Origin: Oceanispirochaeta sp.
GTDB taxonomy: Bacteria > Spirochaetota > Spirochaetia > DSM-2461
Reading direction: 5' to 3'
Length of the DNA stretch: 64,000 bases
Assembly: GCA_963663385.2 (NCBI GenBank)
Contig: CAXXXD010000004.1
Location: 224,001-288,000 of the forward strand
Part shown: positions 4,916-26,226 of the stretch, piece by piece
Layout of the letters: each line of letters starts with the position of its first letter
How positions within the stretch are numbered: position 1 is the first letter of the stretch
The notes under the pieces: generated by a model
The model's input: only the letters and a program-made list of their open reading frames with translations
Databases searched by the model: none
Told to the model about the DNA's origin: nothing
Made by a program: the position numbers and the translations under genes

Positions 4916-5051
4916 TTGTGTATCGGATATGTTTTAATGTTTTCGTAATGATTTCTATTATTTGTGTTTTTTGGTAACAGGCAGATTATATGCTGATCGT
5001 AATCGCGGGAACAATAACAGGAAATTTTATTTCTTTAATAGGGTAGTAAAT

Positions 5052-5885: not shown

Positions 5886-6820
5886 GCAGCAGTATACCGT
5901 GCAGAAAAGCATTTACCGTGAAAATAACAGAGCTGGCTAAAAAAGATCCATCCATTATGGTTGTTACATCCGATGCCAGGGGCTCGGTTACCCTCAATCA
6001 GTATGCTGAGGAGTTGCCGGAGCAGTTTGTGGAAGTCGGGATTGCAGAACAGAATGAAGTGGGAATCGGAGCCGGGATGGCTACATTCGGGAAAAAGGTT
6101 TTTGTTTGTGCCCCCGCCTGTTTCCTATCGGCCAGAAGTCTGGAACAGGTTAAGGTGGATGTGGTTTATACACATACCAATGTGAAGATTATCGGAATCA
6201 GCGGTGGTATCAGTTACGGCGCTCTGGGGTATTCCCATCAATCCCTTCATGATATTGCTGTGATGCGAACCTTCCCCGGTATGGATGTGATTATTCCTTC
6301 CGACCGTTTTCAGGCTGAAGCCATTACTGAATGGCTTGTCGGGAGCGGAGAACCGGCGTATGTCAGGATGGGAAGGGGCGCCGTAAAGGATATTTACTCC
6401 CAAAGCGCTGGCAGTTTCACCTATGGAAAAGCCAATGTTTTAAAAGAAGGTGATGATATTGCCATTATAGCTGTTGGAGAAACTGTCAGCAGAGCCGTTG
6501 ATGCGGCAGAACTCCTGAATAATGAGGGAGTGAGCGCAAGGGTTCTGGATATGGCAACCATTAAACCTATTGATCGGGAAGCCGTACTTAAGGCTATGAA
6601 AGAAACCAGAGGGATTGTAACTGTTGAAGAACACAGTATTTTCGGTGGTTTGGGTTCGGCTGTTGCGGAAATCATTATTCAGGAAGAACCTGTTCCCATG
6701 CGGATTATGGGGATTCCTGATGAGATAACAGTGGAAGGCGAATCTGCAGAGATTTTTGAGTATTACAATATTACTCCGGAAGGGATTAGAGACCAAGCTC
6801 TCAGTATTTTGAAAGGTTAG
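5882..6820 (+). CDS. Transketolase, C-terminal subunit
   Basis: VEVGIAEQN, GYSHQSLHD, YVRMGR, TIKPID, TVEEHSIFGGLGSAVAE. Confidence 0.95.
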   Translation: MSSSIPCRKAFTVKITELAKKDPSIMVVTSDARGSVTLNQYAEELPEQFVEVGIAEQNEVGIGAGMATFGKKVFVCAPACFLSARSLEQVKVDVVYTHTNVKIIGISGGISYGALGYSHQSLHDIAVMRTFPGMDVIIPSDRFQAEAITEWLVGSGEPAYVRMGRGAVKDIYSQSAGSFTYGKANVLKEGDDIAIIAVGETVSRAVDAAELLNNEGVSARVLDMATIKPIDREAVLKAMKETRGIVTVEEHSIFGGLGSAVAEIIIQEEPVPMRIMGIPDEITVEGESAEIFEYYNITPEGIRDQALSILKG

Positions 6821-6823
6821 GAA

Positions 6824-8320
6824 ATGATGGCAGAGAAGAAGTACTTTTTAACAATCGATCAGGGCACTTCCGGGACGAAAGCCTTAATTTTTGGTCGTGA
6901 CGGCAAGATGATCTGCCGTCATGATGAGGGACATAGACAGTTTTATCCCCGGCCGGGGTGGGTCGAGCATGATCCTGAAGAGATTTTTGCCAATACCCTG
7001 AAAGCTGCAAAAGAAGTAATGAATATGGCTGGGACGAGCAGCCGTGAGATAATCTGTATCTCCATTTCCAATCAGAGAGAAACCACCCTTATGTGGGATC
7101 GTGTGTCAGGGAAACCTGTTATGAATGCTGTCGTATGGCAGTGTCAGAGGGGGGAGGGCGTTTGCAAAGAGCTTGAGAAAGAAGGAGCAGCCCCAGACGT
7201 TAAGAAAAAAACCGGAATGGTACTTTCCCCTTATTTTTCAGCGGCAAAAGCTAAATGGATTATGGATAACTGTGTGAATAACAATTCCAGGATTAATAGG
7301 GAGAATGTTGCTTTTGGTACCATGGATAGTTATCTGATATGGAAGCTGACCGACGGAAAGGTTCATGCCACCGATTACTCCAACGCCAGCCGGACCCAAC
7401 TGTTCAATCTTCATACCCTGAAATGGGATGAGGATTTGCTCAATATGTTTGGTTTGGATCCATTCATGATGCCCGAAGTGAGAAGTTCCAATGCCCGGTA
7501 CGGGGAGACTCCCGAGGGAATGTTTGATACGAAGATTCCTGTCGCGGGTGTTCTGGGAGACTCCCATGCGGCCTTCTTTGGGCAGTGCTGTACTGAGAGA
7601 GGCATGACAAAAACAACCTACGGAACAGGATCTTCCGTGATGATGAATATTGGTGATACGCCGATAGATTCTAAAAATGTTGTGACATCCGTTGGGTATT
7701 CTATTGATAATGAAGTTGTGTTTGTTCTGGAAGGGAATATTAACTGCACAGGAGCAACAATAAAGTGGCTGGTCGATGATATTGAACTGTTTGGTTCTTC
7801 CAAAGAGGTTGGAGGCCTGGCCGAATCCGTGGAGGACAACCAGGGGGTATATCTGGTTCCCGCCCTGACCGGTTTAAGCGCTCCTCACTGGAATAGTGAA
7901 GTGCGGGCCGTGATTTCCAATATGTCCAGGGGGACCAAAAAAGCCCATATCGCCAGAGCAGCCGAAGAGTCTATTGTATATCAGATTATGGATGTCATTA
8001 ATGCCATGGGTGAAGAATCTGGGATTCAGGTGGCTGACCTTAGAGTTGATGGCGGCCCTACCAGGGATAACTTTCTTATGCAATTCCAGTCTGATATGCT
8101 GAACGCCCCTGTTGTCAGGAATAAAATAGAAGAGCTTTCAGCTACGGGTGCTATGTATATGGGAGGTCTGGCGATGAAGATCTGGGATACCGTTCGGGAA
8201 ATAGAGAAGCTCCGCGAAATAGAGATAACCTTTAAACCTGTTATGAGCGCTGAGGTAAGACGAAAAAATTATTCCGGATGGAAGAAAGCTGTGAATAACC
8301 TGCTTCAGTCTGAAAATTAG
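6824..8320 (+). CDS. FGGY family carbohydrate kinase (glycerol-kinase-like; possible apulose kinase)
   Basis: IDQGTSGTK, GWVEHDP, SNQRET, TDYSNASRT, GDSHAA, KTTYGTG, LRVDGG. Confidence 0.9.
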   Translation: MMAEKKYFLTIDQGTSGTKALIFGRDGKMICRHDEGHRQFYPRPGWVEHDPEEIFANTLKAAKEVMNMAGTSSREIICISISNQRETTLMWDRVSGKPVMNAVVWQCQRGEGVCKELEKEGAAPDVKKKTGMVLSPYFSAAKAKWIMDNCVNNNSRINRENVAFGTMDSYLIWKLTDGKVHATDYSNASRTQLFNLHTLKWDEDLLNMFGLDPFMMPEVRSSNARYGETPEGMFDTKIPVAGVLGDSHAAFFGQCCTERGMTKTTYGTGSSVMMNIGDTPIDSKNVVTSVGYSIDNEVVFVLEGNINCTGATIKWLVDDIELFGSSKEVGGLAESVEDNQGVYLVPALTGLSAPHWNSEVRAVISNMSRGTKKAHIARAAEESIVYQIMDVINAMGEESGIQVADLRVDGGPTRDNFLMQFQSDMLNAPVVRNKIEELSATGAMYMGGLAMKIWDTVREIEKLREIEITFKPVMSAEVRRKNYSGWKKAVNNLLQSEN

Positions 8321-12449: not shown

Positions 12450-13421
12450 CTATTTCAGTATCTGGGAAGAAACAGGATCTGTCGGTTCTCCCCCGATAGT
12501 CGCTCTGATTGTGGCGATCCCCTCCGCTTCAAAGGCTGAGGCAACCTTGTCCTGCAGCTCTTTTCCGGGGGTCAGGGCTACCATATATCCTCCCCGGCCT
12601 CCCCCTGTCACCTTGGCGCCAAAGGCGCCCAGGGCATTGGCTCTGTTGCAGAGTTCAATCAGTTTTTCATGTGAGAGTCCCATATCAATAAGTATTTCAT
12701 GGTTTTCATTCATAATGCGGCCGGTCTCCTTCAGATCTCCCGCAGAAAGGGCATGACCCAGCTCTTCAACCTGGCTTTTAATCCGTGTCAGCCTTTTATC
12801 AAAAAGATCGGGATCTTTTTTCTGCTGTTCTTCCAGAAAGCCCTTCAGGGATGCGGTATTGGCTGTTATCCCGCTATTCCCCAACACGATTTCGACCGGT
12901 TCCGACAGAGTGATTCTTTCAAACTGTTTGACATCGTCCTTTATTCTGTATTTAATGACGCCCCCGTAGGTGGATACTGTGTTGTCCAGACCGCTTGGAA
13001 GACCGTGATATCCGAATTCTCCTTCCCAGGCTACATGGTTTATATCCAGAATATCCATTCCCAAATCGAATTCCCGGTTGCAGGCCCGGGTAAAGGAGAC
13101 GCAGATTGCCGCACTGGCTCCCACGCCGCTGCCGGCCAGAAGATCTCCCTCTACAGTTATCTTTATGGGATTCTTTTCCAGATCCAGTCCCATAACTTCC
13201 ACCATCCTGTCAAAGGAAGCCTGGCAATCCTCTTCTTTTGCTTTTTTATAACCGGGGACTTCTATTCTATTGTCTTCCAGTACCCAGCCGGATCCCGATT
13301 CAAGGCGTTCTACATGGCATTCTGTTTCAAAGGGAATAGCCGAAAGAACAGCCGGGACTTCCCATAAAACAAACTGATCGCCGATTAATATTGTTTTTCC
13401 GAATCCTTTTCCTGTGCCCAT
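12450..13421 (-). CDS. Mevalonate-kinase-like GHMP kinase with altered substrate motif
   Basis: GKTILIGDQFV (usually GEH), LAGSGVGASAA, HGLPSGLDN, GAKVTGGGRGG. Confidence 0.85.
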   Translation of the reverse strand: MGTGKGFGKTILIGDQFVLWEVPAVLSAIPFETECHVERLESGSGWVLEDNRIEVPGYKKAKEEDCQASFDRMVEVMGLDLEKNPIKITVEGDLLAGSGVGASAAICVSFTRACNREFDLGMDILDINHVAWEGEFGYHGLPSGLDNTVSTYGGVIKYRIKDDVKQFERITLSEPVEIVLGNSGITANTASLKGFLEEQQKKDPDLFDKRLTRIKSQVEELGHALSAGDLKETGRIMNENHEILIDMGLSHEKLIELCNRANALGAFGAKVTGGGRGGYMVALTPGKELQDKVASAFEAEGIATIRATIGGEPTDPVSSQILK

Positions 13422-14648
13422 TTATTTCATTCTCCTTTTGCTTAATACTATTTCAACTTCATCTATAAGCTGTTGTTCCTGTCCGATCTTCACCGTGGTG
13501 GCTGCTGACAGTCCATGGCAGGCGTCCGCAAAGCCTCCCAGATGCTCTGTCGCTTCGGGGAGGAATGTGTTCAGGCCGGGAATCCTGCCGGCTCTGATCT
13601 GTACAGTCAGTTCTTCCGATACTCTCATGGAAATTTTTGTTGAATCGAATCTGATCTCTCCAAAGCCCGGGACCCTGTCTGGAACATGCTGAAATCCTGC
13701 CAGATACTTTGACCTGTCCAGGAAATCCATGTCCTTTATCATAGTGCAGAACACACCGATCATCTTTACGCCCATGGGCTGAAAGCGGTCTTCCACATCG
13801 AACCACTGCAGGTGCTCCGTTGTATTTATCGTTTCTTTGAGTCTTTCAATTTCGTTCCGGAATATGATGTTCTGCTTACGGATCAATTCATCTGCATATT
13901 CCGCAGTAGCGGAATCAATCCCTGACTGGCAGATCTCTACACCCCGATCCGTCCCGTTGCTGTAATACCCGACACCGCCCATCGTATCCAGGGTACGGCA
14001 GAGTTCTTCAGCTTTATACTCCCGGTCTCCCAGATTCATAAAGTACTGTTCGCCTTCTTCTGTTTTTTCAACACGGAGCAGGGATTTTTCCTCAGCGATT
14101 TTCATCACATCCCTGTTCACGCCTGAGAGACAGCCTTCTACCAGAAACCCGTCTCCTATGGCTCCGAGGGCGCCCAGGTGAGAGTAGGGTTCCGCACTTT
14201 TCCCCATGCTCTGAAGAAGCCGGTTCGCAAACAGATAGCAGGTAGCTGAGGCCGATATGTCGCGGTCACCCTTTAAACCGAACAGTTCCCCGTCCAGGCA
14301 GAAAACCGAATCATCAATTACTCCTTCAGTCGGATGGTGATCCAGAATGATTATAAGATTCCGACCTTTGTTCATATCTGCTATGATAGGAGCAATCTTG
14401 CCGGCAAAATCGGCAAAAAAGATAATCTGATCATCCCCCGGCAGTATTTTCTCCAGAACCTGAGGATACGGTTTTTCCAGTGAGAACCGGGAAACTTTAT
14501 AGCCGGATTGGCTTAGAGCATTCAGAAGAATGGTTCCCGAGCTTAAACCGTCTGTATCATTATGATGCAGAAGCGTAATTTCCCGGGCCGGATTCTTCTG
14601 TAATGCCGCGATGGCTTTATCCATTGCTAAAAGAAGGTTATCAATCAT
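13422..14648 (-). CDS. DHH family phosphoesterase
   Basis: HHNDTDG, FADF, ILDHHP, GAIGD. The C-terminal GGGH motif is degenerate (FADACH). Abuts the kinase gene. Confidence 0.8.
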   Translation of the reverse strand: MIDNLLLAMDKAIAALQKNPAREITLLHHNDTDGLSSGTILLNALSQSGYKVSRFSLEKPYPQVLEKILPGDDQIIFFADFAGKIAPIIADMNKGRNLIIILDHHPTEGVIDDSVFCLDGELFGLKGDRDISASATCYLFANRLLQSMGKSAEPYSHLGALGAIGDGFLVEGCLSGVNRDVMKIAEEKSLLRVEKTEEGEQYFMNLGDREYKAEELCRTLDTMGGVGYYSNGTDRGVEICQSGIDSATAEYADELIRKQNIIFRNEIERLKETINTTEHLQWFDVEDRFQPMGVKMIGVFCTMIKDMDFLDRSKYLAGFQHVPDRVPGFGEIRFDSTKISMRVSEELTVQIRAGRIPGLNTFLPEATEHLGGFADACHGLSAATTVKIGQEQQLIDEVEIVLSKRRMK

Positions 14649-14786: not shown

Positions 14787-15584
14787 ATGAAGGATAACGA
14801 TCAAACAAAACAGCTGCAGTCCCAGGGGGCAAGGCAGGAGAGAATCATTGAACTGGTGCAGAGAGACGGTCATGTTCGGGTTCTTGATTTAAGTAAACTG
14901 CTGAATGTCTCGGAAATCACCATCCGGCGGGACCTGGCCATGCTTGAAAAGAAAAACCTTCTTGAGCGAACCCATGGCGGAGCCATATCAACGCATCGTA
15001 TCTACAAAGAGGTCAATTACAGCAGCCGGTCCGATCTGGAACTGGAGAGTAAAGACTCCATAGGAAAGCTGGCTGCTGAGATGATTAATGACGGCGATAC
15101 GGTCTTTATTAACGGGGGATCCACTACCTATCATATATTCAGGTATATTAAAAGTGAAAATGTAAAAATCATAACCACAAATCCCGGGAGCATCGGACAA
15201 ATCGAAAGACCGGATATCGAACTGATACTGGCCGGCGGTTTGTATCATCCCCAATCCAATTCCTTCTACGGCGGTATCACCAATGAAATTCTGAACCAGG
15301 TAAATGCCAATAAGGCAATTATCGGGGTTCACGGCATAAGCTGCCTTTACGGTATAACCACTCCTATGCAGTATGCGGCAGAAACAACCAGGCTTATGAT
15401 AAACAGGACAAGGGGAGAAGTTATCGTTGTGGCGGATCATAGCAAAATCGGGCTGGTTTCCGACTATGTTACCTGTCCTACAAACCGGATAAATACCCTG
15501 ATTACCGATCGATTTCCTGATGAAGAGTATAGGAAGGACTTTGAGGAACTGGGGATTAAAGTTATACAAACCGGTTCTAAATAA
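14787..15584 (+). CDS. DeoR/GlpR family transcriptional regulator
   Basis: VSEITIRRDL..RTHGGA, FINGGSTT, VADHSKIG. Preceded by TTGATT-17-TATAAT. Confidence 0.95.
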   Translation: MKDNDQTKQLQSQGARQERIIELVQRDGHVRVLDLSKLLNVSEITIRRDLAMLEKKNLLERTHGGAISTHRIYKEVNYSSRSDLELESKDSIGKLAAEMINDGDTVFINGGSTTYHIFRYIKSENVKIITTNPGSIGQIERPDIELILAGGLYHPQSNSFYGGITNEILNQVNANKAIIGVHGISCLYGITTPMQYAAETTRLMINRTRGEVIVVADHSKIGLVSDYVTCPTNRINTLITDRFPDEEYRKDFEELGIKVIQTGSK

Positions 15585-15743
15585 GTTCTTTTTTCAGTTC
15601 ATTTTTATTCTACTTTTCTCTCCCCTCCGGGTTTTTCCGGACACATAGAGTCTGTACAAATGCATGGATTCAATAGGTGATCGACTTGGTTCACAATGTT
15701 TATTGCGATGTTCGTAAACAATCTTCAAATTGCAAATTATTGT

Positions 15744-15798
15744 TTGACAGACTGAAAGTATCGGGTTAATGTTTCATTAATGATCGAGAACGATCATT
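15744..15798 (+). promoter_or_regulatory. Promoter of the Ugp-like ABC operon with an operator palindrome at the start site
   Basis: TTGACA (15744-15749), 17 bp, TAATGT (15767-15772). AATGATCG-AGAA-CGATCATT at 15779-15798. Confidence 0.7.
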
Positions 15799-15968
15799 CA
15801 GTGAAGCGCTTTTTTATTAGAAGAGATCAGGATGAATTTGATCGTGAAAATAGAATCATACGATCGGTTCCGATCTTTTTTCTTAAATTGTTTCAGTCAC
15901 TTAGGGATCCTTTTCCTCTAATACTTCAGAGGAAAAGGATCGGGAAAATAAAGAATAAGGAGAATTAC

Positions 15969-17306
15969 ATGAAGAAAATCAGAATGGTAGCTATAATCCT
16001 TTTTGTAGCTTTGATTTTTCCAGTTGCTGTGTCGGCGGGAGGCAGTGTTGATGTCGATGAATCGGCGGAAGTCAATATTGAATTCTGGCATGCTATGGGG
16101 GGTGACAGAATTGAGCTGATACAGGGAATTGTCGATCAGTTTATGAAAGAGAATCCCAATATCAAAGTGGATGTACAGTACTCCGGATCTTATAATGATA
16201 CGTTGAACAAAGTAAAATCGGCTTATAAAGCGGGAAATGCCCCAGATATCTTCCATTCTTATGAAATCGGTACTCTTGGATTGATTAACAGCGGGATTAT
16301 TTCTCCTCTTGATGAAATGGCTGCTAAATATGAACGTACAATCCCCTGGGATGATTTCTTTACCCCTGTGCAGAGTTATTACAAGTATAAAGGCGATCAC
16401 TATTCCATGCCGTTCAACTCTTCTACGCCTCTGATTTTCTATAACAAATCCTTTTTCGAGAAAGCCGGTCTGGATCCTGAAAATCCCCCGAAAACATACG
16501 GAGAAATCAGAGAAGCTGCTCTTGCCCTCAGGAAAGCCGGATTTGAGACTCCTATTACCTGGAATCTGCATTCATGGTATTTCGAAGAGATGATCTGTCT
16601 CCAGGATGAACCCTTTGTTAACGATAAAAACGGAAGAAGCGGTGAACTCCCCACAGAAGTTGTTTTCAACGGCAAACAGGGACAGACCGTACTCGACTGG
16701 TGGATCGGTCTGGAGAAAGAAGGACTGTTTCTTGACGTAGGTCCGGGCTGGTCAAACCATAGAGCAGCTTTCGGTTCCGGGGAAGCGGCGATTGTCATGT
16801 CTTCTTCATCAGATGTCAATACACTCACAGCTGCACTTGCGGAAAAAGGCTGGGAAATGGGAACCGGTTACATTCCAAGACCTGAAGGGGCCAAAGGCGG
16901 TGTTGCGATCGGTGGCGGTTCATTATGGATGACCAACAATCATACTCCGGAAGAAGAGCTGGCTGCGCTCAAGCTTATTACTTATATTTCTGAAGATGAG
17001 GCGCAGATGGCCTGGCACAAAGGTACCGGATATTTTCCTGTACGTAAAACAGCCATGGACAAGCTGAAGTCCGAAGGTTGGTTTGAAGAAAATCCCAACT
17101 ACCTGACTGCTTTCAATCAGCTGCTGGACAGTCCTGAATCATTGAATACGGCAGGAAGTCTTCTGGGTGTTTTTCCCGAAGTCAGAGAGCTGGTTCAGTC
17201 CGCTATTCAGGAAATGTATGCAGGCAAGCCTATCAAAGAAGCTCTCGATGAAGCTGCTGCTAAAGCAAATGCTTCAATAGCAGAGTGGAATGAAGTCATC
17301 CAGTAA
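15969..17306 (+). CDS. ABC transporter substrate-binding protein (UgpB/CUT1-like)
   Basis: Signal peptide; IEFWHAMGG, SMPFNSSTPLIFYNK, IGGGSLW, WHKGTGYFPV. AAGGAG RBS supports ATG 15969. Confidence 0.9.
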   Translation: MKKIRMVAIILFVALIFPVAVSAGGSVDVDESAEVNIEFWHAMGGDRIELIQGIVDQFMKENPNIKVDVQYSGSYNDTLNKVKSAYKAGNAPDIFHSYEIGTLGLINSGIISPLDEMAAKYERTIPWDDFFTPVQSYYKYKGDHYSMPFNSSTPLIFYNKSFFEKAGLDPENPPKTYGEIREAALALRKAGFETPITWNLHSWYFEEMICLQDEPFVNDKNGRSGELPTEVVFNGKQGQTVLDWWIGLEKEGLFLDVGPGWSNHRAAFGSGEAAIVMSSSSDVNTLTAALAEKGWEMGTGYIPRPEGAKGGVAIGGGSLWMTNNHTPEEELAALKLITYISEDEAQMAWHKGTGYFPVRKTAMDKLKSEGWFEENPNYLTAFNQLLDSPESLNTAGSLLGVFPEVRELVQSAIQEMYAGKPIKEALDEAAAKANASIAEWNEVIQ

Positions 17307-17330
17307 AAGTTAAAAAAAATGTACATTGGG

Positions 17331-17362
17331 GAGCCGTTCTTCTTTTGAAGAACGGCTCTTTT
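17331..17362 (+). terminator. Intercistronic hairpin or partial terminator after the binding-protein gene
   Basis: GAGCCGTTCTTC-TTTT-GAAGAACGGCTC followed by TTTT. Confidence 0.7.
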
Positions 17363-17377
17363 GACAAGAGGTATTTT

Positions 17378-18247
17378 ATGAATCAATCAACCTTTAATAA
17401 CAGGTGGCTTCCCTATATCTTACTGGTACCGACTTTTCTGGTTCTCTGTATTTTTCTATTTTATCCGGCGATTGAGACTTTCAGACTGAGTTTATACAAA
17501 GTCCATCCCTGGTCAGGAGCCACAAAATTTGCAGGATTATACAATTTCTCCAAAGTTTTTCAGAATCCTGATTACCTGGACAGTTTTATTCTGTCCGCCG
17601 GTTTTGCCCTTGCTGTAATTTTCGGAGGGCTGTTTTTCAGTCTGCTTGTGGCTCTTCTGCTCAATATGAAATTGAAGGGAATACGTTTCTACCGTACCTT
17701 TCTGATCTGGCCGTATGCTTTATCTCCGGCTATAGCCGGTGCCCTGTTTAATTTTCTGTTCAATCCGGCCAATGGGGTTCTCTGTTATTTTACAGGTGCG
17801 CGAACCTGGCTGACCAGCGAAAAAACAGCTATTATTGTTGTGATTGTTGCGGCGGTCTGGAAAAATCTGGGATACAACATAATTTTCTATCTGACAGCGC
17901 TGCGGAATGTGCCTGGTGCGGCATTGGAATCGGCTTCGATCGATGGGGCAGGACCGGTTAAGAGGTTTTTATATATTACTTTCGCCTTTTTATCTCCTAC
18001 GACTTTTTTCCTCTTCGTAATGAACACGATTTACGCTTATTTCTCCTGTTTTGGTTTGATAGATGTATTGACTGAGGGAGGACCGTCCGGATCAACCGGG
18101 GTTCTCATCTACCATCTTTATAAAGATTTCTTCGTCCATTCGAAAATCGGATACGCAGCGGCCGAGAGTCTGGTTCTCTTCACTTTGGTTGTCGGGGTTA
18201 CAATCCTTCAATTCAAAACAACCGGCAAAAAAGTCCACTATCAATAA
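17378..18247 (+). CDS. ABC permease (UgpA-like)
   Basis: YRTFLIWPYALSPA, WKNLGYN, EAA-like LESASIDGA, LTEGGP. Confidence 0.92.
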   Translation: MNQSTFNNRWLPYILLVPTFLVLCIFLFYPAIETFRLSLYKVHPWSGATKFAGLYNFSKVFQNPDYLDSFILSAGFALAVIFGGLFFSLLVALLLNMKLKGIRFYRTFLIWPYALSPAIAGALFNFLFNPANGVLCYFTGARTWLTSEKTAIIVVIVAAVWKNLGYNIIFYLTALRNVPGAALESASIDGAGPVKRFLYITFAFLSPTTFFLFVMNTIYAYFSCFGLIDVLTEGGPSGSTGVLIYHLYKDFFVHSKIGYAAAESLVLFTLVVGVTILQFKTTGKKVHYQ

Positions 18248-18264
18248 AAAAGGAGAGAAACCCT

Positions 18265-19089
18265 GTGAGTTATTCTAAAAAAAAGACCTTTGGCCTGCAC
18301 TTTCTGCTGGTTCTGTGTATTCTTATCATCAGCCTGCCCGTTATTCTGGCCCTGATCATCAGCACTCAGTCAGAAGCCCAGGTTATGTCCTATCCCCCGG
18401 GACTGATTCCCGGGACGAACATGATAAACAATTATACGACCGCATGGAATTCCGTTAATCTGGGACGAATGATATTCAATTCGACCTTCATTTCCTTCGG
18501 CGTTATTGCCGGGAAAGTATCGATGAGCCTTCTCGCCGCCTTTGCCTTCACTCATTTTGAGTTCAAAGGGAAAAACCTTCTTTTCGGTCTGATCCTCGTC
18601 ACACTCCTTCTGCCGGTACCGGTCAGGATTGTCGCCCTCTTCGATGTTATCAGGAGCATGGGGTGGATAAATACCTATGCGGGGCTGATGATACCCTTCT
18701 GGGCAAGCGCTACAAGTATATTTATTCTGATTCAGAGGTTTAGGGTTGTTCCTTCGGAGTTGATCGACGCATCGAAAATGGATGGCTGTCAGCCCATGCA
18801 GTATTTTTTCAAAGTACTGCTTCCTCTGACGAAAAGTACCATCGGAGCTCTTGTGGTAATCAATTTTATTTATATCTGGAATCAGTATCTCTGGCCTCTC
18901 ATGGCAACCAACAGTGATGATATGAGGGTTGTTCAGATTGGTATAAAAATGCTGATGAGCGCTGAATCCACCAATAACTGGGGAGTCATTATGGCCGGAG
19001 TTATTATAACCATGATCCCGCCGCTCCTCATTTTTATTATTATGCAGGAGAGTTTCATGGCAGGATTCGCTCTTGAGAGCGAAAAATAG
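18265..19089 (+). CDS. ABC permease (UgpE-like)
   Basis: AAFAF..FEFKGK, ELIDASKMDG, FIYIWNQYLWPL; GTG start after AGGAG. Confidence 0.92.
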   Translation: MSYSKKKTFGLHFLLVLCILIISLPVILALIISTQSEAQVMSYPPGLIPGTNMINNYTTAWNSVNLGRMIFNSTFISFGVIAGKVSMSLLAAFAFTHFEFKGKNLLFGLILVTLLLPVPVRIVALFDVIRSMGWINTYAGLMIPFWASATSIFILIQRFRVVPSELIDASKMDGCQPMQYFFKVLLPLTKSTIGALVVINFIYIWNQYLWPLMATNSDDMRVVQIGIKMLMSAESTNNWGVIMAGVIITMIPPLLIFIIMQESFMAGFALESEK

Positions 19090-19225
19090 CTGAAGAGGAT
19101 AATTCTTCAGGCTTCTAGATCATGAGCTTCAAAATACTGAGACACGGCTTTTTTTCCTCCGGACAGAATCCAGATTCTTCCTGTGGGGGCTGTTTCCTCG
19201 GAAGAGGAGGGAGGTTGGAATACTT

Positions 19226-19927
19226 ATGCTGATAATCGGCCACAGGGGAGCAATGGACCTGGCTCCTGAAAATACACTTCTTTCGATTCGCACAGCTCTT
19301 GAATCGGGAGTTCATATGGTAGAGATAGATGTCGCATTGTGCCGTTCGGGAGAATTAATGCTGATGCATGATGATGAAGTCGATAGAACGACAGATGGTA
19401 ACGGCTGCATCGCAGATCTGTCTTACCACGAGTTAAGGGCTCTGAATGCTGGAGAGGGGGAAGCTATTCCGTCTCTTCAGGAAGTGATAGATCTGATAGA
19501 CGGAAGGTGTCCGTTGAATATTGAAATTAAAGGTAAAGGGTCTTCTGACGAATTAGCAAGAATCCTTCGACGGGAAATCAATGAAAAGGGGAGAGCGAAG
19601 GAGGATTTTATCGTTTCCTCCTTTGATCATTGCGAACTTAACAGATTTACAAAGCTCTATTCCGGAATAAGAATATCCCCCATCGTCTGCTGTCACCCCC
19701 TGTCTCTGGCAAACTTAGCCGAAGAGATCGGTGCCTGGTCTCTGAATATAAAACGGGAATTTGTCAGCCGTGAGATTGTTGAAGACGCTCATAAACGAGG
19801 GATTAAGGTTCTGGTTTTTACTGTAAATCATCCCTGTGAGTTGGATAAATTAAGAGATATTGGAGTGGATGGTGTCTTTACCAATAACCGGTACCGGCTC
19901 TTGGGTTTATCGCAGCTAACCGCATAA
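19226..19927 (+). CDS. Glycerophosphodiester phosphodiesterase (UgpQ/GDPD family)
   Basis: IIGHRGA, PENT, VEIDV, MHD..VDRTT, LNIEIK, SSF, GVDGVFTN. Confidence 0.93.
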   Translation: MLIIGHRGAMDLAPENTLLSIRTALESGVHMVEIDVALCRSGELMLMHDDEVDRTTDGNGCIADLSYHELRALNAGEGEAIPSLQEVIDLIDGRCPLNIEIKGKGSSDELARILRREINEKGRAKEDFIVSSFDHCELNRFTKLYSGIRISPIVCCHPLSLANLAEEIGAWSLNIKREFVSREIVEDAHKRGIKVLVFTVNHPCELDKLRDIGVDGVFTNNRYRLLGLSQLTA

Positions 19928-19956
19928 GAATCACTCTGAATGGTAAGAAATAAAAG

Positions 19957-19995
19957 TTGACAAAATAATTGGTACAGTGTTAATGTACCAATTAT
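19957..19995 (+). promoter_or_regulatory. Promoter and 12-bp-arm operator palindrome of the glycyl-radical operon
   Basis: TTGACA 19957-19962; extended -10 TGtTAATGT 19978-19986; ATAATTGGTACA-N7-TGTACCAATTAT at 19965-19995. Confidence 0.75.
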
Positions 19996-20866
19996 GAAGG
20001 TAATCCTTTTTCAGACAGGCTGGAACTACTCTCAGGACGGTCCCGGCAACAGGCTCCTCCTCCATTTTCAGGGATGCAACTTCGACTGCCCCTGGTGCAG
20101 CAACCCTGAAGGCCGGTCCCTCAAGGGGGAGCTGTTTGTCCGTCCGGATCTTCTGGATCCGGATGTCTGCCCCCATGGCGCGGTTATGGAGTCCGGTCTG
20201 AACCGCAGCCTCTGCAGGAACTGCCGGGACAGGGAATGCCTGGGGATTTACCGAAACCAGGGTGTGTATGCCTCCGCCAGGGAGTATGAGGTGGAAGAGC
20301 TGGTTGAAATGGCTGTGCAGTCCCGGTCCCTTTTTTTCGACGGGGGGGGCGTTACCATAAGCGGGGGGGAGGCCACCCTTCAGTTTGATGCGCTTAATCG
20401 GCTCCTGCAGAGGCTGAAGGAGGAAGGCATCCATACGGCCCTTGAAACTAACGGAAGTCACCCGGAGCTTTCCGCTCTTTTTCCGTATATTGATCTTCTC
20501 ATTTTTGATCTCAAGCATTATGACTTTCCGGCAGTCCATAAGGTACTGAAAAACCGGGGAGCCCATGTCAGGAAAAATCTGGAGAACATATGCCAATCCG
20601 ATCAGCCGGTTCTGGTCAGAGTTACGGTTATCCCCGGATTCAACAGTTCCTTTGAAGATATGGAAAAGTTTGCCGATCTTTTTTCCTCCCAGAGATGGAA
20701 AGACAATTTCAGACTGGAACTCCTCTATTATCACGATTTCGGAAAGGTGAAATGGGATGCCATCGGTCAGGAGTACAAAGGTCCGGATGAATCTGTTTCG
20801 GAAGAGGATAAGGCGGTATACCGCAGAATATTCAAAGAGAGGAATCTCGATCTGATAGAGACATAG
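19994..20866 (+). CDS. Glycyl-radical enzyme activating enzyme (radical SAM)
   Basis: QDGPGNR, GCNFDCPWCSNPE (CX3CX2C), Cys-rich ferredoxin-like insert, GGVTISGGE, HTALETNG, FDLK. Confidence 0.93.
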   Translation: MKVILFQTGWNYSQDGPGNRLLLHFQGCNFDCPWCSNPEGRSLKGELFVRPDLLDPDVCPHGAVMESGLNRSLCRNCRDRECLGIYRNQGVYASAREYEVEELVEMAVQSRSLFFDGGGVTISGGEATLQFDALNRLLQRLKEEGIHTALETNGSHPELSALFPYIDLLIFDLKHYDFPAVHKVLKNRGAHVRKNLENICQSDQPVLVRVTVIPGFNSSFEDMEKFADLFSSQRWKDNFRLELLYYHDFGKVKWDAIGQEYKGPDESVSEEDKAVYRRIFKERNLDLIET

Positions 20867-20882
20867 AACAGGGAGACGAATC

Positions 20883-23270
20883 ATGAATTGGCAGGATGTC
20901 TATAAAAAGGGAGAAAGGGCGTCGGAGTTGGCGGATGCCTGTTTTCAGGAACAAAAGAGAACCCATATCCTGAACGGGTGGTTCAGGGTTCTGGAAATCC
21001 ATAAAGATGCCGCTCCGCACTTTCCGGAAGGTGCCTCACTGGAGACGCAGGCGGCCCTCAGGCTGAAAGCGGTTGTTGAAAATCTACCTCTGTCCATCAG
21101 TGACAGTGCTGTCTTTGCGGGAACCCAGAATGACGCCTTTTCGAGCAGTTATGCCCTGATTCATCCTTCCTTTAAAGTGGAGGAATTCAAGGGGTATTGT
21201 GATCCCCTGGCGGTCTTCAATGACCTGGGCCCCGAAGAGGGGATGACCTGTGAAAGGATTGATGCGGTTAAAGGGTACTACGCCCGGACGGATTATGTAA
21301 AAGAACTGAATGCTTCCTATGCTAACTGCCGGGAACAGACAGAAGAAGCCCTTTTCTTTGTAGAACAGGTAACCGGTCATCTGATACCCGATTTTTCACA
21401 GCTGATCAAACTGGGAACGGAGGGTGTAAAAAAACGGCTTTTTGAAAAGGAAGCGGAGGAGCTGTCGTCAGCAAAGAAAGACAGTCTTCGGGCTATGATC
21501 AGTTCTCTGGACTCGCTTGATACACTTGCCCGCCGCTACAGGGATATAGCCCGGCTGCATCTGGAAGGAGAGAGTGATCCGCAGAGGCGGAATGAGTGGG
21601 CCCTTATGGTTCAGACACTGGAGGGGGCCCCCCTGACCGGGGCAAAGACCCTCTACGAAGCCATACAGGTATTTATCCTCTGCTGGCAGGTGATGTGTCT
21701 GGAGCAGTGTCCCAATCCCTATGCTTTTTCCGCCGGGAATGTGGACCGCCTTTTCGAACCCTACCGGGCAGCGGATAAAGCGGACAGAGAGTCTTCCGCC
21801 GGGTTGTTCCAGGCTTTGCTGGCGTTTTTCAATGTGGGCGACCGCAGCTGGGCCATCTCCCAGAATCTGCTTCTAAGCGGCCGGGACGTTGCTGGAAAAG
21901 ATCTGACAAATCCTGCAAGCTATGCCATCCTGGATGCCTTTTACAAAGGGCGTTACCCTCAGCCTATTCTATCCATACGACTGCATAAGAACAGTCCGGA
22001 AGGGTTGTATCGTTCTACGGGCCGGTTTTTCTTTACCCCCGGGCAGCTGACGCCCTCCCTTTTTAACGACGATTCCCTGATCCCCCTGCTGGTGGAGCAG
22101 GGGGTCTCTCCCGATGATGTGGAAAACTACGCCATCGCTGGCTGTCAGGAACCCCTTATCGCCGGTAAGGATAACGGAAATACCACCAATAGCTGGCTTA
22201 ATCTGGCAAAGGTTCTTGAGATAACCCTGAATGAGGGACGTTCCTCCATTACAGGCCGGAAGTTAGGGGTGTCGCCCTCTGAACTGCTGGGGCAGGAACT
22301 TTCGGCAAAAGAGCTGCTTCTGAGAATCCGGGAGGTCTACTATAAACAGCTGGATGCCGCATTAGCCCTTATGACCGAGGCGGGAGATAGCTGTTCCCGG
22401 GCGCTTTCCAATCTGAGAGTGCCCTTCCTCTCCTGCTCCATGGGCGGTATGGAATCCGGGGTTGATCTGAGGAACGACAGAGAGCAGGGAACCCGTTACA
22501 ACGGCAGCGGCTGTCTGATACACGGCCTTTCTGTTCTGGCTGATTCCTTTCAGTCCCTCTCTGATTTTGCGGACAGTAAAAGTGAAGAAGAGTGCCGTCA
22601 TCTGCTGCAGGCTCTTAAGAGTGATTACAGGGATGATGAAGTCCTCCGGCAGTATCTTGCGAGCAGTCCCAAATTCGGAAACAATATTTCCTCTGTCGAC
22701 GGAGAGGCGGTAGAGATTGTTGCCCGTGTCTCCGATAGGGTAAGGGAGAAGAAGAACTACCTGGGCAATCCTTTCCGGCCGGACTGGAGCTCCCCCTCCA
22801 CCCATCTGCTCTACGGGTACTGGACCGGAGCCACTCCCGACGGCCGCCGGGCCCGTACCATGCTGGGATACGGGGTTGACCCCCTATACGGTGAGGCGGC
22901 AGCCGGTATGAATTCGCGGCTCCTTTCCCTTAAAAAACTGCCCTATGAAAAGATGAACGGGGGCTGTGCCTGTCACCTCGGAATCAATCCGGCCTGTTTC
23001 CCCGAGGAAACCCTTGAAGATAAAGGCGCGGCTTTCAGGGGGAAGGTTCTGGATCCTCTCTTTAACCTTTCCGGAGACGGCGGAAAGATAGGTCCCTTCT
23101 ATCTCTATGTAAATGTTACGACAGCCGGGACTCTGCGTAAGGTACTGGAGAAGCCGGAAAAATATGCTCCTTCGGGAGTTTATATTATGAGAATCCACGG
23201 GACTTTTGTGAATTTCCTGGATCTCTCCCCCTCTATTCAGGAGGATATTATCCTTCGTCTGGATAACTGA
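20883..23270 (+). CDS. Glycyl-radical enzyme (PFL superfamily) of unknown reaction
   Basis: 795 aa; Cys loop AIAGCQEP, NLAKVLE, PKFGN, GATPDGR; C-terminal LRKVLEKPEKY..MRIHGTFVNF..LS..IQEDII. Adjacent to an activase. Confidence 0.88.
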   Translation: MNWQDVYKKGERASELADACFQEQKRTHILNGWFRVLEIHKDAAPHFPEGASLETQAALRLKAVVENLPLSISDSAVFAGTQNDAFSSSYALIHPSFKVEEFKGYCDPLAVFNDLGPEEGMTCERIDAVKGYYARTDYVKELNASYANCREQTEEALFFVEQVTGHLIPDFSQLIKLGTEGVKKRLFEKEAEELSSAKKDSLRAMISSLDSLDTLARRYRDIARLHLEGESDPQRRNEWALMVQTLEGAPLTGAKTLYEAIQVFILCWQVMCLEQCPNPYAFSAGNVDRLFEPYRAADKADRESSAGLFQALLAFFNVGDRSWAISQNLLLSGRDVAGKDLTNPASYAILDAFYKGRYPQPILSIRLHKNSPEGLYRSTGRFFFTPGQLTPSLFNDDSLIPLLVEQGVSPDDVENYAIAGCQEPLIAGKDNGNTTNSWLNLAKVLEITLNEGRSSITGRKLGVSPSELLGQELSAKELLLRIREVYYKQLDAALALMTEAGDSCSRALSNLRVPFLSCSMGGMESGVDLRNDREQGTRYNGSGCLIHGLSVLADSFQSLSDFADSKSEEECRHLLQALKSDYRDDEVLRQYLASSPKFGNNISSVDGEAVEIVARVSDRVREKKNYLGNPFRPDWSSPSTHLLYGYWTGATPDGRRARTMLGYGVDPLYGEAAAGMNSRLLSLKKLPYEKMNGGCACHLGINPACFPEETLEDKGAAFRGKVLDPLFNLSGDGGKIGPFYLYVNVTTAGTLRKVLEKPEKYAPSGVYIMRIHGTFVNFLDLSPSIQEDIILRLDN

Positions 23271-23273
23271 GAT

Positions 23274-24314
23274 ATGGATAAAAATACGCTCTACCAGACA
23301 ATCCGGCTGGATTTTTTTAAAAAAGTCTACGCCGGAGAAATCCGGCCGCATCAGCCCCTGCCCGCCGAAAGAAAGCAGGCGGAAGAGCTCTCTGTCAGCC
23401 GGGGGACCATCCGTAAGGCCCGTCAGATCCTGGCCGAGGAGGGTTATATTGCCAATACCCAGGGAAGTGCCGCTGTCTATACGCCGCTTGCGAAGGGTCC
23501 ATCGGGAAAGCCGGAGATTGTGGCGGTGGTTGTTCCGGTGCATAACCCTTTTTTCATGTCCTACTACAGGGCATTCGAGAAAGAAGCGGAAGAGGCGGAT
23601 GTCCTGGTGATGATCAAGCAGCTGGACAGCCGAAATGCGGGTCAGCTCAAGAAGGTCCTGTTCTCCTTTTTTATAAAAGGGATACGGGATGTGGTGTTCT
23701 GGCCCTACGATACGGTCCTGGATTATCCGTATATAGAGCGGCTCAGCGGTCTGGGGATGAACTTCATATTCTTTGATAATGTTCATGATTTCCCCTGCTG
23801 CGACTATATCAGTGTGGATAACCGGGATGGGATTTCCCTTCTGTACAAATCCTTACAGGATAAGGGGTGCGGTCGTATAGCCTATATGGGGTGGGATAAT
23901 CCGCATCTCACCAGCAACTCAGAGCGGGAAGCTGCTTTCCGTCAGGAAAAATCCGAAGGGGACCGGGTTATCCGTATACCCTGGAATCAGGAAGATTTAA
24001 GCTTTGATCTGCTGGAAAGCGTTCTGAATCTGCCGGATCTAAGGGGAGAACGGAAAATCGACGGTTTCCTCTGCGGTAACGGACTGATCGGTGTGGTTTT
24101 AAAACGGTATCTGAATAATAACGGCTTTTCCGGTATCCCTTTGGTCTCCATTGATAATTTTGAAGAATCAGAAGATCTAGGATTTACCGTATACGAACAG
24201 CCCTTTGAAATGATGGGACGGAAAACCTTTCATCTTCTGGAAAAACGACACAGGGATGAGAAAGGGAACAGCCCGGAGAAACTTTATATAAAAGGCAGGT
24301 TGATTGAGAGATGA
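23274..24314 (+). CDS. GntR-HTH / LacI-type sugar-binding regulator (AraR-like architecture)
   Basis: LPAER..AEELSVSRGTIRKA HTH; HNPFF, ISVDNRDG, EREAAF, TVYEQP. Confidence 0.9.
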   Translation: MDKNTLYQTIRLDFFKKVYAGEIRPHQPLPAERKQAEELSVSRGTIRKARQILAEEGYIANTQGSAAVYTPLAKGPSGKPEIVAVVVPVHNPFFMSYYRAFEKEAEEADVLVMIKQLDSRNAGQLKKVLFSFFIKGIRDVVFWPYDTVLDYPYIERLSGLGMNFIFFDNVHDFPCCDYISVDNRDGISLLYKSLQDKGCGRIAYMGWDNPHLTSNSEREAAFRQEKSEGDRVIRIPWNQEDLSFDLLESVLNLPDLRGERKIDGFLCGNGLIGVVLKRYLNNNGFSGIPLVSIDNFEESEDLGFTVYEQPFEMMGRKTFHLLEKRHRDEKGNSPEKLYIKGRLIER

Positions 24315-25663
24315 ATTTAATCGGATTGGATATCGGTACTACCACTATAGGCGGCGTCCTGTACTCTCTGAAAGAGAGGAAGACCCTTAAAACTTTGGTG
24401 TGGGACAACCTTTTTACAGACAGCGCCCCGGGGGAATATACTCAGGACCCGCTTGCTGTTCTGGACAGTGTAAAAGCCATTCTGGATGAACTGATAGACG
24501 CCTCTTCCGATACGGTTGGAGGCTGTTCTCTCAGCGCTCAGATGCACGGGATCCTCTATGTAGACGGAACGGGCCAGCCGGTGTCTCCCTTCTATACCTG
24601 GCAGAACCAGAGAGGCCGGAGACTCCACGAGGGGCAGTCCCTTGAATCGTTTCTATCGTATAAACTGGGCTATCCTGTTCATACCGGCTACGGGATTGTA
24701 ACCCACTATTCATTGATGCTGGATAACAGCATCCCCGCTTCAGCCGTTAAATTCTGCAATATCGGCGATTTTGTCTGTATGCGTCTGGCCGGGAAAACGG
24801 AACCAGTAACGGATATTACCCTTGGCGCCAGTCTGGGGATTGCGGATATCAGCACCGGCAGGCTGTCAGAAAGTCTCAGAAACCTGGATTTCGCGGAAGA
24901 TGACAGGATTCCCCGGATTGTTTCGTCAACGGAAAAGCTGGGAGAATACCGGGGGGTTCCCGTTATTCAGCCTCTGGGGGATAATCAGGCCAGCTTTCTG
25001 GGATCCGTAAAGGATAAGGAGAACAGCCTGCTCCTCAACTACGGTACAGCCGGACAGATCTCATTTTTCAGGAATACTTTTGCCTCCTACGCCGGATTCG
25101 AGACCAGACCCCTTGGGAATGAAGGATACCTTTATGCGGCTTTTTCTCTCTGCGGGGGGAAATCCTATATGGTTCTGGCTGATTTCTTTAAAGCCGCGGT
25201 CAGGCTTTTTTCTCCTTCTGAAGAGGGTAACGTTCTTGAGGTTATGGACAGTCTGGAACTGGACTTTTCTGAGGATGCGATTGAGTGTCTGCCTCTTTTT
25301 CTGGGAGAAAGGGGAGGCCGGGATGAGTTTGCTTCTTTCAGTAATATTACCGACAGGAACTTTTCTCCTGAAAATATGGTTAAGGCCCTGGTTCAGGGGA
25401 TGGTGGATGAACTGCGCCGCTACTACTGCGATCTGCCTGATTCTGTCAGAACGGGGCTTGAGACCCTGGTGGGCGCCGGTAACGGAATCAGAAAAAACCT
25501 GCATCTGCAGAAAGCGGCAGAGCAGCGCTACGGAAAACCTGTCAAGATACTGGATTTGAGTGAAGAAAGCTGTCTGGGGGCCGTGATCAATGCCGGAAAG
25601 GGTGTGGGGATATTTCGCAATTACAGGGAAGGAGCTCTGAATATCGTCAGATATCGTTCGTAA
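24311..25663 (+). CDS. FGGY family kinase, sedoheptulokinase-like
   Basis: IGLDIGTTT, QMHG, YTWQ, TGYGIVT, LGDNQASFLG, LNYGTAGQIS, LCGGKSY, GNGIRKN. Confidence 0.85.
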   Translation: MNLIGLDIGTTTIGGVLYSLKERKTLKTLVWDNLFTDSAPGEYTQDPLAVLDSVKAILDELIDASSDTVGGCSLSAQMHGILYVDGTGQPVSPFYTWQNQRGRRLHEGQSLESFLSYKLGYPVHTGYGIVTHYSLMLDNSIPASAVKFCNIGDFVCMRLAGKTEPVTDITLGASLGIADISTGRLSESLRNLDFAEDDRIPRIVSSTEKLGEYRGVPVIQPLGDNQASFLGSVKDKENSLLLNYGTAGQISFFRNTFASYAGFETRPLGNEGYLYAAFSLCGGKSYMVLADFFKAAVRLFSPSEEGNVLEVMDSLELDFSEDAIECLPLFLGERGGRDEFASFSNITDRNFSPENMVKALVQGMVDELRRYYCDLPDSVRTGLETLVGAGNGIRKNLHLQKAAEQRYGKPVKILDLSEESCLGAVINAGKGVGIFRNYREGALNIVRYRS

Positions 25664-25728
25664 AAAGACCCGAGTATCCGGGGTGCGTACCCTTACTTTT
25701 TCTGAATTGATTATGCTAGAGTGGGGGC

Positions 25729-26226
25729 ATGTTAGAAACGAATGGATATGAACCCGATATTGCAAAGGGAGAGCCTTTTGTATTCAGCCTTAAATCAGAA
25801 CAGTATAAAGCCCGGTATGTCTGCGTCCCGGGTTGTGTCTGCGATAATCCCGTCTGTTCCTGCCGGGATATCGGCATGGCCATCTATGACTACCCGGAAC
25901 AGGGACAGGATCTGACAGATACACCGGTTTATGCCTTTGTGCTGGACCTTGGAAACAGAAGCCTCCAGGCTGATTACAACTGCAGCCGGGAAAGCCGCGC
26001 CTTTGGCGCATTCTTTCTGGATCATGTGACCCGGGAACACTGGGCGCTTTATGAAAAGGCATTCGTCTATCTGAAAAACAGGGCCATGCAGCAGAAGAAG
26101 ATTCTGAAGGGAACAGCAGAGAATATTGCCGGACAGATCCTTCCTGTGAGTCCCGGAAATACAGGAAGGAATGAACCCTGCCCCTGCGGCAGCGGAAAAA
26201 AGTATAAAAACTGCTGCGGGAAATAA
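25729..26226 (+). CDS. SEC-C motif-containing protein
   Basis: C-terminal GRNEPCPCGSGKKYKNCCG; N-terminal CDNPVCSC cluster. Confidence 0.85.
   Translation: MLETNGYEPDIAKGEPFVFSLKSEQYKARYVCVPGCVCDNPVCSCRDIGMAIYDYPEQGQDLTDTPVYAFVLDLGNRSLQADYNCSRESRAFGAFFLDHVTREHWALYEKAFVYLKNRAMQQKKILKGTAENIAGQILPVSPGNTGRNEPCPCGSGKKYKNCCGK

Follow-up and report, generated by a model that had tools for sequence, protein, structure and literature searches.

A regulated glycyl radical enzyme cassette with a sedoheptulokinase-like FGGY kinase in Oceanispirochaeta, likely a new anaerobic sugar pathway

The glycyl radical enzymes (GREs) YbiW and PflD of Escherichia coli, which act on 1,5-anhydrohexitol 6-phosphates, are described as the GREs of 'anhydroglycolysis' (PDB 8id7, 8id0 and 8yjo) in the accessible part of a 2026 review, which names only two sugar-acting GRE isomerases (PMC13450708). 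In the same part of that review, CXE is the motif common to characterized GRE eliminases and isomerases, and His164 of glycerol dehydratase (GD) protonates the leaving hydroxyl (PMC13450708). Among FGGY kinases, mammalian sedoheptulokinase (SHPK/CARKL) phosphorylates free sedoheptulose at C7, according to the accessible part of its description, and many bacterial relatives bear its name from their source records (PMC3370649). Here, we describe a four-gene cassette in a 64,000-nucleotide stretch of DNA (the window) from a spirochaete that shares its genus with the Oceanispirochaeta record L001 (assembly GCA_963663385.2, contig CAXXXD010000004.1, positions 224,001 to 288,000), in which an activase, a GRE, a GntR/LacI-type repressor and an FGGY kinase are encoded together. 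The cassette is real and regulated, is organized around an apparently intact, oxygen-sensitive GRE from an uncharacterised clade with unusual structural features, and is tied to ketose kinases and a specialised isomerase. Since the GRE groups with no characterized enzyme and the kinase co-occurs with it, the cassette is likely a new anaerobic sugar pathway, as a preliminary description of the window had proposed, although the order of steps put forward there, a kinase product handed to the GRE, is rated slightly below its reverse. That description did not mention the non-canonical glycine loop, the short cap segment or the isomerase partner present in relatives. A new class of radical reaction would be the less likely but larger outcome. 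The genes are as follows:

19994..20866, + strand, activase (GRE-activating radical SAM enzyme), 290 aa
20883..23270, + strand, GRE of an uncharacterised clade, PFL-like, 795 aa
23274..24314, + strand, GntR/LacI-type repressor, 346 aa
24311..25663, + strand, FGGY carbohydrate kinase from the sedoheptulokinase-annotated subfamily, 450 aa

These four open reading frames (ORFs) are present and closely packed as first described, with gaps of 16, 3 and -4 nt from activase through GRE and regulator to kinase, and the layout of the operon likewise bears out the absence of microcompartment, acyl-CoA or transporter genes inside it. Shell and acylating dehydrogenase genes are absent from the window operon, the relatives not having been profile-searched for them and ORFs below 100 aa not having been called there. 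Antisense ORFs at 19931-20884, 22884-23786 and 25061-25765 were taken as shadows of the real genes.

The GRE matches the Pfam family PFL-like (E 1e-93) and gives no match to the Pfam Gly_radical domain at E<=0.001. It lies far below the cut-off of every NCBIfam GRE model (best 231 versus 678 bits), the pyruvate formate-lyase (PFL) model TIGR01255 giving 73 versus 994 bits, and its Cys loop, GCQEP, has a single Cys and not the two adjacent Cys of PFL and TdcE, in agreement with the non-PFL loop noted earlier. An AF2 model from a 150-row alignment (mean pLDDT 93) folds into a beta/alpha barrel of 10 strands that Foldseek superposes on the listed solved GREs with TM 0.75-0.85 and 18-25% identity; the best match is GD (1r8w, TM 0.85, 24% identity), and GD and 1,2-propanediol dehydratase (PD; 5i2g, 9rco) together give TM 0.84-0.85. 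With no more than 25% identity to any solved GRE and the NCBIfam scores given above, the enzyme does not group with a characterized one, whether GD, PD, HypD, CutC, IslA, HpsG/HpfG, a decarboxylase, YbiW or PflD. The clade is compact: clustering at 50% identity gives three full-length clusters, followed by a drop to a small sister group whose loops read RVHG. Proteins of the sister clades (P0249, P0255, P0256, P0259 and P0243) share GCQEP, PNPYAFS and the short cap described below, have loops of the RVHG[MY] or RIHGQ type, and in four cases carry Arg at Cys+12. No description of this clade was found in literature whose coverage leaves out most subscription journals, a frequent home of GRE discoveries, and the cluster may already be visible in published similarity networks; the accessible text of the 2026 review uses 'kinase' once and 'sedoheptulose' 0 times (PMC13450708).

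The proximity to the diol dehydratases brings in the explanation that a known activity, glycerol or propanediol dehydration or a redundant YbiW or PflD reaction, is housed in a divergent scaffold, with the kinase on a parallel branch. GD and PD are indeed the best matches in both sequence and fold, and their Cys, Glu and His164 equivalent are kept; nevertheless, the identity is 24-25%, PNP[YF]AFS stands in place of GHSIS and Thr in place of Asp447, the cap has 9 residues instead of 20, the context is that of a sugar kinase, all equivalog scores are far below cut-off, and no diol oxidoreductase recurs in the neighbourhood clusters of relatives. Moreover, the window's genome holds four other GREs (L182, L183, L184 and L185), one YbiW-like (931 bits), one PflD-like (645 bits) and two unassigned. 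The known-activity explanation is therefore improbable, and, because of the YbiW-like and PflD-like enzymes elsewhere in the genome, 1,5-anhydrohexitol phosphate reactions in particular are unlikely for the window GRE. It resembles YbiW and PflD in its single-Cys CXE loop, in having an activase of its own in a carbohydrate setting and in the FSA-type aldolases found beside a few relatives, but it is 20-22% identical to them, differs in the Cys-loop, cap and Gly-loop segments, and belongs to a family with an FGGY kinase and an isomerase partner, the YbiW-like and PflD-like genes standing separately in the genome.

Conservation within the clade was read from a family alignment of 96 rows (93 of the 120 listed matches, two representatives and the window protein), and three segments of the GRE stand out:

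22143..22151, + strand, Cys loop C421-Q422-E423, invariant in 96/96 family rows
23190..23204, + strand, Gly loop R770-I-H-G773-T774 (canonical RVxG[FWY]), invariant in 96/96 family rows
21834..21860, + strand, shortened 'cap' segment, residues 318-326, 9 residues against 20 in GD, PD and PflD

H166, C421, Q422, E423, R770, H772, G773 and T774 are invariant in all 96 rows, C421 is also kept in 47 of 47 distant GRE rows, and the CXE motif of GRE 1,2-eliminases and isomerases is present as C421-Q-E423. The GRE fingerprint of the review, in its accessible part, is RVxG[FWY]x6-8[FL]x4Qx2[IV]x2R (PMC13450708), with the spacing of which R770, G773, L781, Q786, I789 and R792 agree; the departures, V to I and the aromatic residue to Thr774, occur in 96/96 rows. 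The odd glycine loop and the short cap might be taken as marks of a degenerate GRE that no longer forms a radical, consistent with the unmatched Gly_radical domain and the replaced aromatic residue, but Gly, Cys, Glu and the remaining fingerprint positions do not vary, protein clustering places an activase in the same locus in 77 of 80 cases, and the CX3CX2C motif of the window activase is intact (C28/C32/C35), which makes degeneration highly improbable. This activase exceeds the TIGR02494 cut-off (179 versus 174 bits) and has four more Cys (59, 74, 77 and 82), not eight, leaving room for at most one auxiliary cluster. Over half of the clade's activases lack the Cys-rich auxiliary ferredoxin insert (absent in 45 and present in 29 of the 74 parsed, out of 78 in the cluster), all of them serving one GRE family, whereas, as far as the accessible part of the review goes, most activases carry it, with the PFL and RNR activases as exceptions (PMC13450708).

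The cap segment, between N317 and Q327, has 9 residues in 97 of 97 family rows, 11 fewer than in GD, PD and PflD, and shows no helix in the model (local pLDDT 79); 12 of 49 distant uncharacterised GRE rows are likewise short at this point (<=11 residues). By our own strand numbering, it would lie between beta2 and beta3, at the position of the cap helix, which the accessible part of the review describes as conserved in all GREs and as part of the substrate channel (PMC13450708), so that the clade would depart from two features given there as conserved, the cap helix and the aromatic residue after the radical glycine. Across 33 positions mapped by alignment to the active site, 85 locus sequences from Bacillota, Spirochaetota, Bacteroidota, Chloroflexota and Lentisphaerota vary only at 280 (F/Y), 636 (S/A) and 637 (S/T); GRE clades are usually single-function, and the near-invariance of this putative site across five phyla points to one substrate for the clade. 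Five His and R321 are invariant, and no family-specific Arg or Lys falls in the mapped active-site columns. Cys+12 is Asn433, against Arg in the genome's own YbiW-like enzyme, and R321, the one invariant Arg near the site, aligns near an Arg of the cap segment that is likewise found in PflD and the diol dehydratases. These two observations argue for a neutral substrate.

The kinase consists of FGGY_N and a weak FGGY_C match below the gathering score, with QMHG and GDNQ motifs. The label 'sedoheptulokinase-like' given to it earlier agrees with the source-given names of its relatives but, like 'sedoheptulose' as the sugar itself, derives from annotation only. Neighbours were counted in the 80 best loci (93 for accessory genes); Acutalibacteraceae are heavily represented among the 80, which are therefore not independent. 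In 78 of the 80 an FGGY kinase lies within 6 kb, which upholds the predicted co-occurrence with GRE homologues; it is sedoheptulokinase-like in 67 (65 at >=200 bits plus two truncated or split copies, L012 and L074) and only xylulokinase-like in 11, and in the other two (L044 and L051) the sedoheptulokinase-like kinase is encoded elsewhere in the genome. The xylulokinase-like substitutes score over the xylulokinase cut-off, and 8 of the 11 genomes that have them, most being incomplete metagenome-assembled genomes, show no sedoheptulokinase-like gene; a same-genus cassette (G009) has no kinase adjoining. The kinase also exists without the GRE (5 against 2 of the same 400 genomes, both lower bounds), GRE-free copies often being orphans or lying beside true D-psicose 3-epimerases, which score above cut-off in the operons at L103 and L109. 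In a FastTree tree of 35 linked and 21 picked unlinked kinases the two types mix, with 9 label changes, at least 4 of them forced. Among D-psicose 3-epimerase operons (L103, L109 and L189), the FGGY kinase may be sedoheptulokinase-like or xylulokinase-like, mirroring the swap in the GRE cassette, and the kinase ORFs at L105 and L153 have an N-terminal extension that by eye resembles a MerR-type DNA-binding domain. The kinase has Thr-Thr and Trp-Gln residues resembling those examined in CARKL, as far as the accessible part of that work describes them (PMC3370649); the contexts of the bacterial kinases differ, with many orphans besides operons for psicose epimerase, GH32 and GH38, and the likeness to SHPK is one of source-given names, not of direct alignment. 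No study of a bacterial member of the sedoheptulokinase-like subfamily was found in the literature.

The xylulokinase-like substitutes would also fit a C-C cleavage, such as a radical reaction in which a sugar acid loses its carboxylate, leaving a shorter aldose to enter the pentose phosphate pathway through an isomerase and a xylulokinase-type enzyme, with an intact sugar as product. This reaction is nevertheless quite improbable, slightly more so than a known activity in a divergent scaffold, as the annotated subset of loci shows no recurrent genes for uronate transport or uronate lyases next to the GRE and no invariant Arg could be placed for the carboxylate by sequence mapping.

From the anatomy of the cassette, the fold model, the conserved residues, the gene linkage and the operator, we infer a reaction type, an order of steps and a sugar series to which a probability of about one in three (roughly 0.35) may be given: the GRE would act on a neutral polyol or anhydrosugar of the manno/fructo series by cleaving a C-O bond, after which the ketose product would be trapped by the kinase. 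The repressor would occupy a palindrome covering the -10 box and leave it on binding a sugar, making the cassette inducible and catabolic; the activase would, by analogy with the family, place the radical on Gly773, to be relayed to Cys421; the thiyl radical would abstract H from a carbinol carbon of a neutral polyol, anhydro-alditol or related compound of the D-manno/D-fructo series; Glu423 would deprotonate that hydroxyl while the adjacent C-O (or C-N) bond breaks, with His166 assisting, to give a (deoxy)ketose; the FGGY kinase would add a phosphate to the terminal carbon of the ketose, and the route would be completed by aldolase or pentose-phosphate enzymes of the housekeeping set. C-O cleavage in a carbohydrate is the default because GRE eliminases and ring-opening isomerases are equipped with CXE and the His164 equivalent, and diol dehydratases as the nearest solved folds are consistent with it. 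A ketose as kinase substrate is suggested by the free sedoheptulose of the namesake enzyme, the xylulokinase-like substitutes, the psicose-epimerase operons and the mixing of linked and free copies on the tree. As for the order of steps, the GRE is tentatively placed before the kinase, because the kinases resemble end-of-route enzymes that trap ketoses and serve other operons as well, because the mapped site holds no Arg or Lys specific to the family, and because the genome's PflD-like GRE is paired instead with a ROK kinase, together with an ABC transporter and not a phosphotransferase system.

In the reverse order, the kinase (with the isomerase where present) would make a sugar or alditol phosphate, which the GRE would dehydrate or ring-open as YbiW and PflD do. 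This has a direct precedent in the reactions of these two enzymes on 1,5-anhydrohexitol 6-phosphates, in the accessible part of the review (PMC13450708), leaves the isomerase an intact aldose or ketose, and agrees with the invariance of R321 and the five His and with a shortened cap segment that could widen the pocket. On the other hand, the cassette in most loci lacks the dedicated enzymes that would have to process a deoxy-diulose or deoxy-ketose phosphate further, two FGGY subfamilies would have to give one product for an invariant active site, and the YbiW- and PflD-like roles are already filled in the genome. Because the kinase can be swapped for a xylulokinase-like one and occurs without the GRE, and because the mapped site has no family-specific Arg or Lys, phosphorylation first is possible but doubtful.

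The commonest accessory gene, near the GRE in 36 of 80 loci, encodes a bicupin resembling type I phosphomannose isomerase (PMI), fused to the kinase in L053; a divergent copy (32%) recurs in two spirochaetes of another family, and none is found in the window's genome. Compared with type I PMI (B. subtilis 1qwr; ManA), the PMI-like partner shares the bicupin fold and the Gln/His/Glu/His metal ligands but has QEP[TS]DF..Q for QQN[SC]..TYR and RLP for DLS. It scores below the ManA cut-off, and canonical ManA is encoded elsewhere in 5 of 5 genomes tested, which makes it a paralogue. A conserved Arg binds phosphate in ManA, and this Arg is lost in 35 of 35 parsed PMI-like copies. Ordinary mannose 6-phosphate as the intermediate is weakened by the canonical ManA already there in those five genomes.

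This partner would be accommodated by a radical epimerase, or another skeleton-preserving isomerase, in which the GRE would invert a carbinol remote from the carbonyl and turn a 'wrong' sugar into a normal one; we suggest as candidates L-glycero-D-manno-heptose of lipopolysaccharide or its ketose, leading to the sedoheptulose series, and L-sorbose or L-gulose, leading to the fructose series. Isomerase and kinase would then deliver sedoheptulose 7-phosphate or fructose 6-phosphate with no further gene needed, which accounts for the PMI-like partner (in two phyla and one fusion, itself a ManA paralogue without the conserved Arg), for the lack of aldolase, reductase and CoA genes, and for the interchangeable ketose kinases. 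If true, this would be the first glycyl-radical sugar epimerase, and it would allow anaerobes of gut, digester and sediment to use a sugar that is 'wrong' at a single remote stereocentre, for example the heptose of lipopolysaccharide, with the remodelled isomerase of mannose type and the sedoheptulokinase-like kinase passing the product directly to central metabolism. An epimerase is nevertheless unlikely, and a little less probable than a GRE acting after the kinase: none is among the GRE classes in the accessible part of the 2026 review (PMC13450708), Glu423 and His166 are suited to elimination, and no second catalytic Cys could be placed, the invariant C106 considered for this role aligning with a buried hydrophobic helix position of other GREs. 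Furthermore, a type I PMI-like gene is absent from the window's genome, as is GmhA above cut-off, so that an aldoheptose route would lack its isomerase there.

Ketose-side genes within 6 kb in the 93 loci comprise FSA-type aldolases in 6 (of the Gln/Tyr type), psicose epimerase-like genes in 3, GatZ-like genes in 3, GH32 in 2 and mannitol dehydrogenase-like genes in 2; one of the GH32 loci, from Bacteroidota, has three GH32 genes and an MFS permease directly upstream. FSA and the PMI-like isomerase occur together in 0 of 93 loci, a split that follows taxonomy. As a substrate clue, a dedicated transporter was set aside, since ABC genes recur only in some Lachnospiraceae and the best PDB match of the binding protein, 4kqc, gives no ligand name.

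Several points weigh against C-O cleavage followed by trapping of the ketose. The chief difficulty is that the PMI-like gene is the commonest accessory, yet a 1-deoxy-ketose cannot serve an aldose-ketose isomerase, which needs oxygen on both C1 and C2, and the PMI-like enzyme is left acting on a side or upstream sugar. An aldolase is present in only 6 of 93 loci, and no short FSA-type gene is found in the window's genome, though one is expected for YbiW-like and PflD-like products; this is tempered by two long forms with Gln at the acid-base position (L168:1450-2526 and L169:1450-2490), the only TAL/FSA-family genes of the genome, and, as the YbiW-like and PflD-like enzymes there would need a short aldolase too, its absence was set aside as an argument against a deoxy-ketose product. 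In transaldolases that position is the catalytic Glu, and no canonical transaldolase was seen in this genome. Accessory ketose genes are rare and the kin loci are not independent; GD His281, Ser282 and Asp447, which have recognized roles in that enzyme, are not kept; and the phosphate argument is a mapping of sequence without coordinates, in which the five invariant His could bind phosphate.

Upstream of the activase, the regulatory elements are:

19957..19962, + strand, -35 box TTGACA of the operon promoter, read from the sequence, with a TTGAC-type box at similar distance in most relatives
19965..19995, operator, a perfect 12+12 inverted repeat, family consensus ATTGGTA-N11-TACCAAT (25 bp)
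19978-19986, likely extended -10 inside the operator

The palindrome thus spans the likely extended -10 and the activase start codon. In most relatives the palindrome is preceded, at 8-12 nt, by a -35 box of the TTGAC type and encloses a TATAAT-like -10, and this conservation supports an operon promoter despite a consensus scan that listed none at the cassette start; of the promoter and operator first described ahead of the four genes, the operator is borne out by its perfect repeat and the promoter by conservation but not by the scan. The palindrome is found upstream of the activase in 20 of the 23 loci that have a GntR/LacI gene (L001 and L090 being one locus counted twice), in 0 of 13 with a ROK regulator and in 1 of 44 others (L044, cut by a contig end), against a background of 27 in 1600 random windows; since it tracks the GntR/LacI gene across loci, it is very likely the operator of that regulator. 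Elsewhere in the genome, the family-consensus operator occurs only as five identical repeated sites beside rRNA-motif positions. The start codon lies within a few bases of the palindrome, without a Shine-Dalgarno sequence, in the window's genus and in three other loci, which suggests that the activase mRNA is probably leaderless. The repressor combines a GntR winged helix-turn-helix with a LacI-type sugar-sensing domain (Pfam), the domain order of AraR-type hybrids; its 25-bp operator differs from the AraR box, and no arabinose isomerase or epimerase (ara) cluster is among the recurrent neighbours of the relatives' loci. The repressor with its defined operator, the kinase and the isomerase paralogue are three soluble handles toward the substrate that require no radical chemistry.

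Family-specific patterns match at least 908 stretches of the GTDB collection, 892 of them confirmed, although these need not be distinct genomes, and the clade is present in at least five phyla, including the cultured gut species Blautia schinkii and Faecalicatena contorta. It was found in 7 of 37 genomes of the window's family and 6 of 10 of its genus; in larger samples, where only 2-4 candidates were scored per genome and the values are lower bounds, it was present in at least 2 of 300 genomes of the window's phylum, in at least 2 of 400 of the phylum of G038, and, besides the centre, in 0 of 300 of the order of G053. The GRE and gene order of L055, labelled Bacteroidaceae, are nearly identical to those of the clostridial L040 and L068, and L055 is probably a mis-binned contig. 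A Dorea genome encodes a further GRE of another kind, together with an activase for it, immediately upstream of the cassette (L050:4563-7828).

The chromosomal place of the cassette varies among relatives. In the window, its upstream neighbour (14787-19927) comprises a DeoR regulator, a UgpB-like ABC transporter and a glycerophosphodiester phosphodiesterase; this unit was rejected as the cassette's transporter, adjoining it in 0 of 7 same-genus or same-family relatives, and is probably a separate one for glycerophosphodiester uptake. At 4962-8320, a split transketolase and an FGGY kinase behind a DeoR-like gene form another sugar operon, and the minus strand at 12450-14648 encodes a GHMP-family kinase and a DHH-domain protein.

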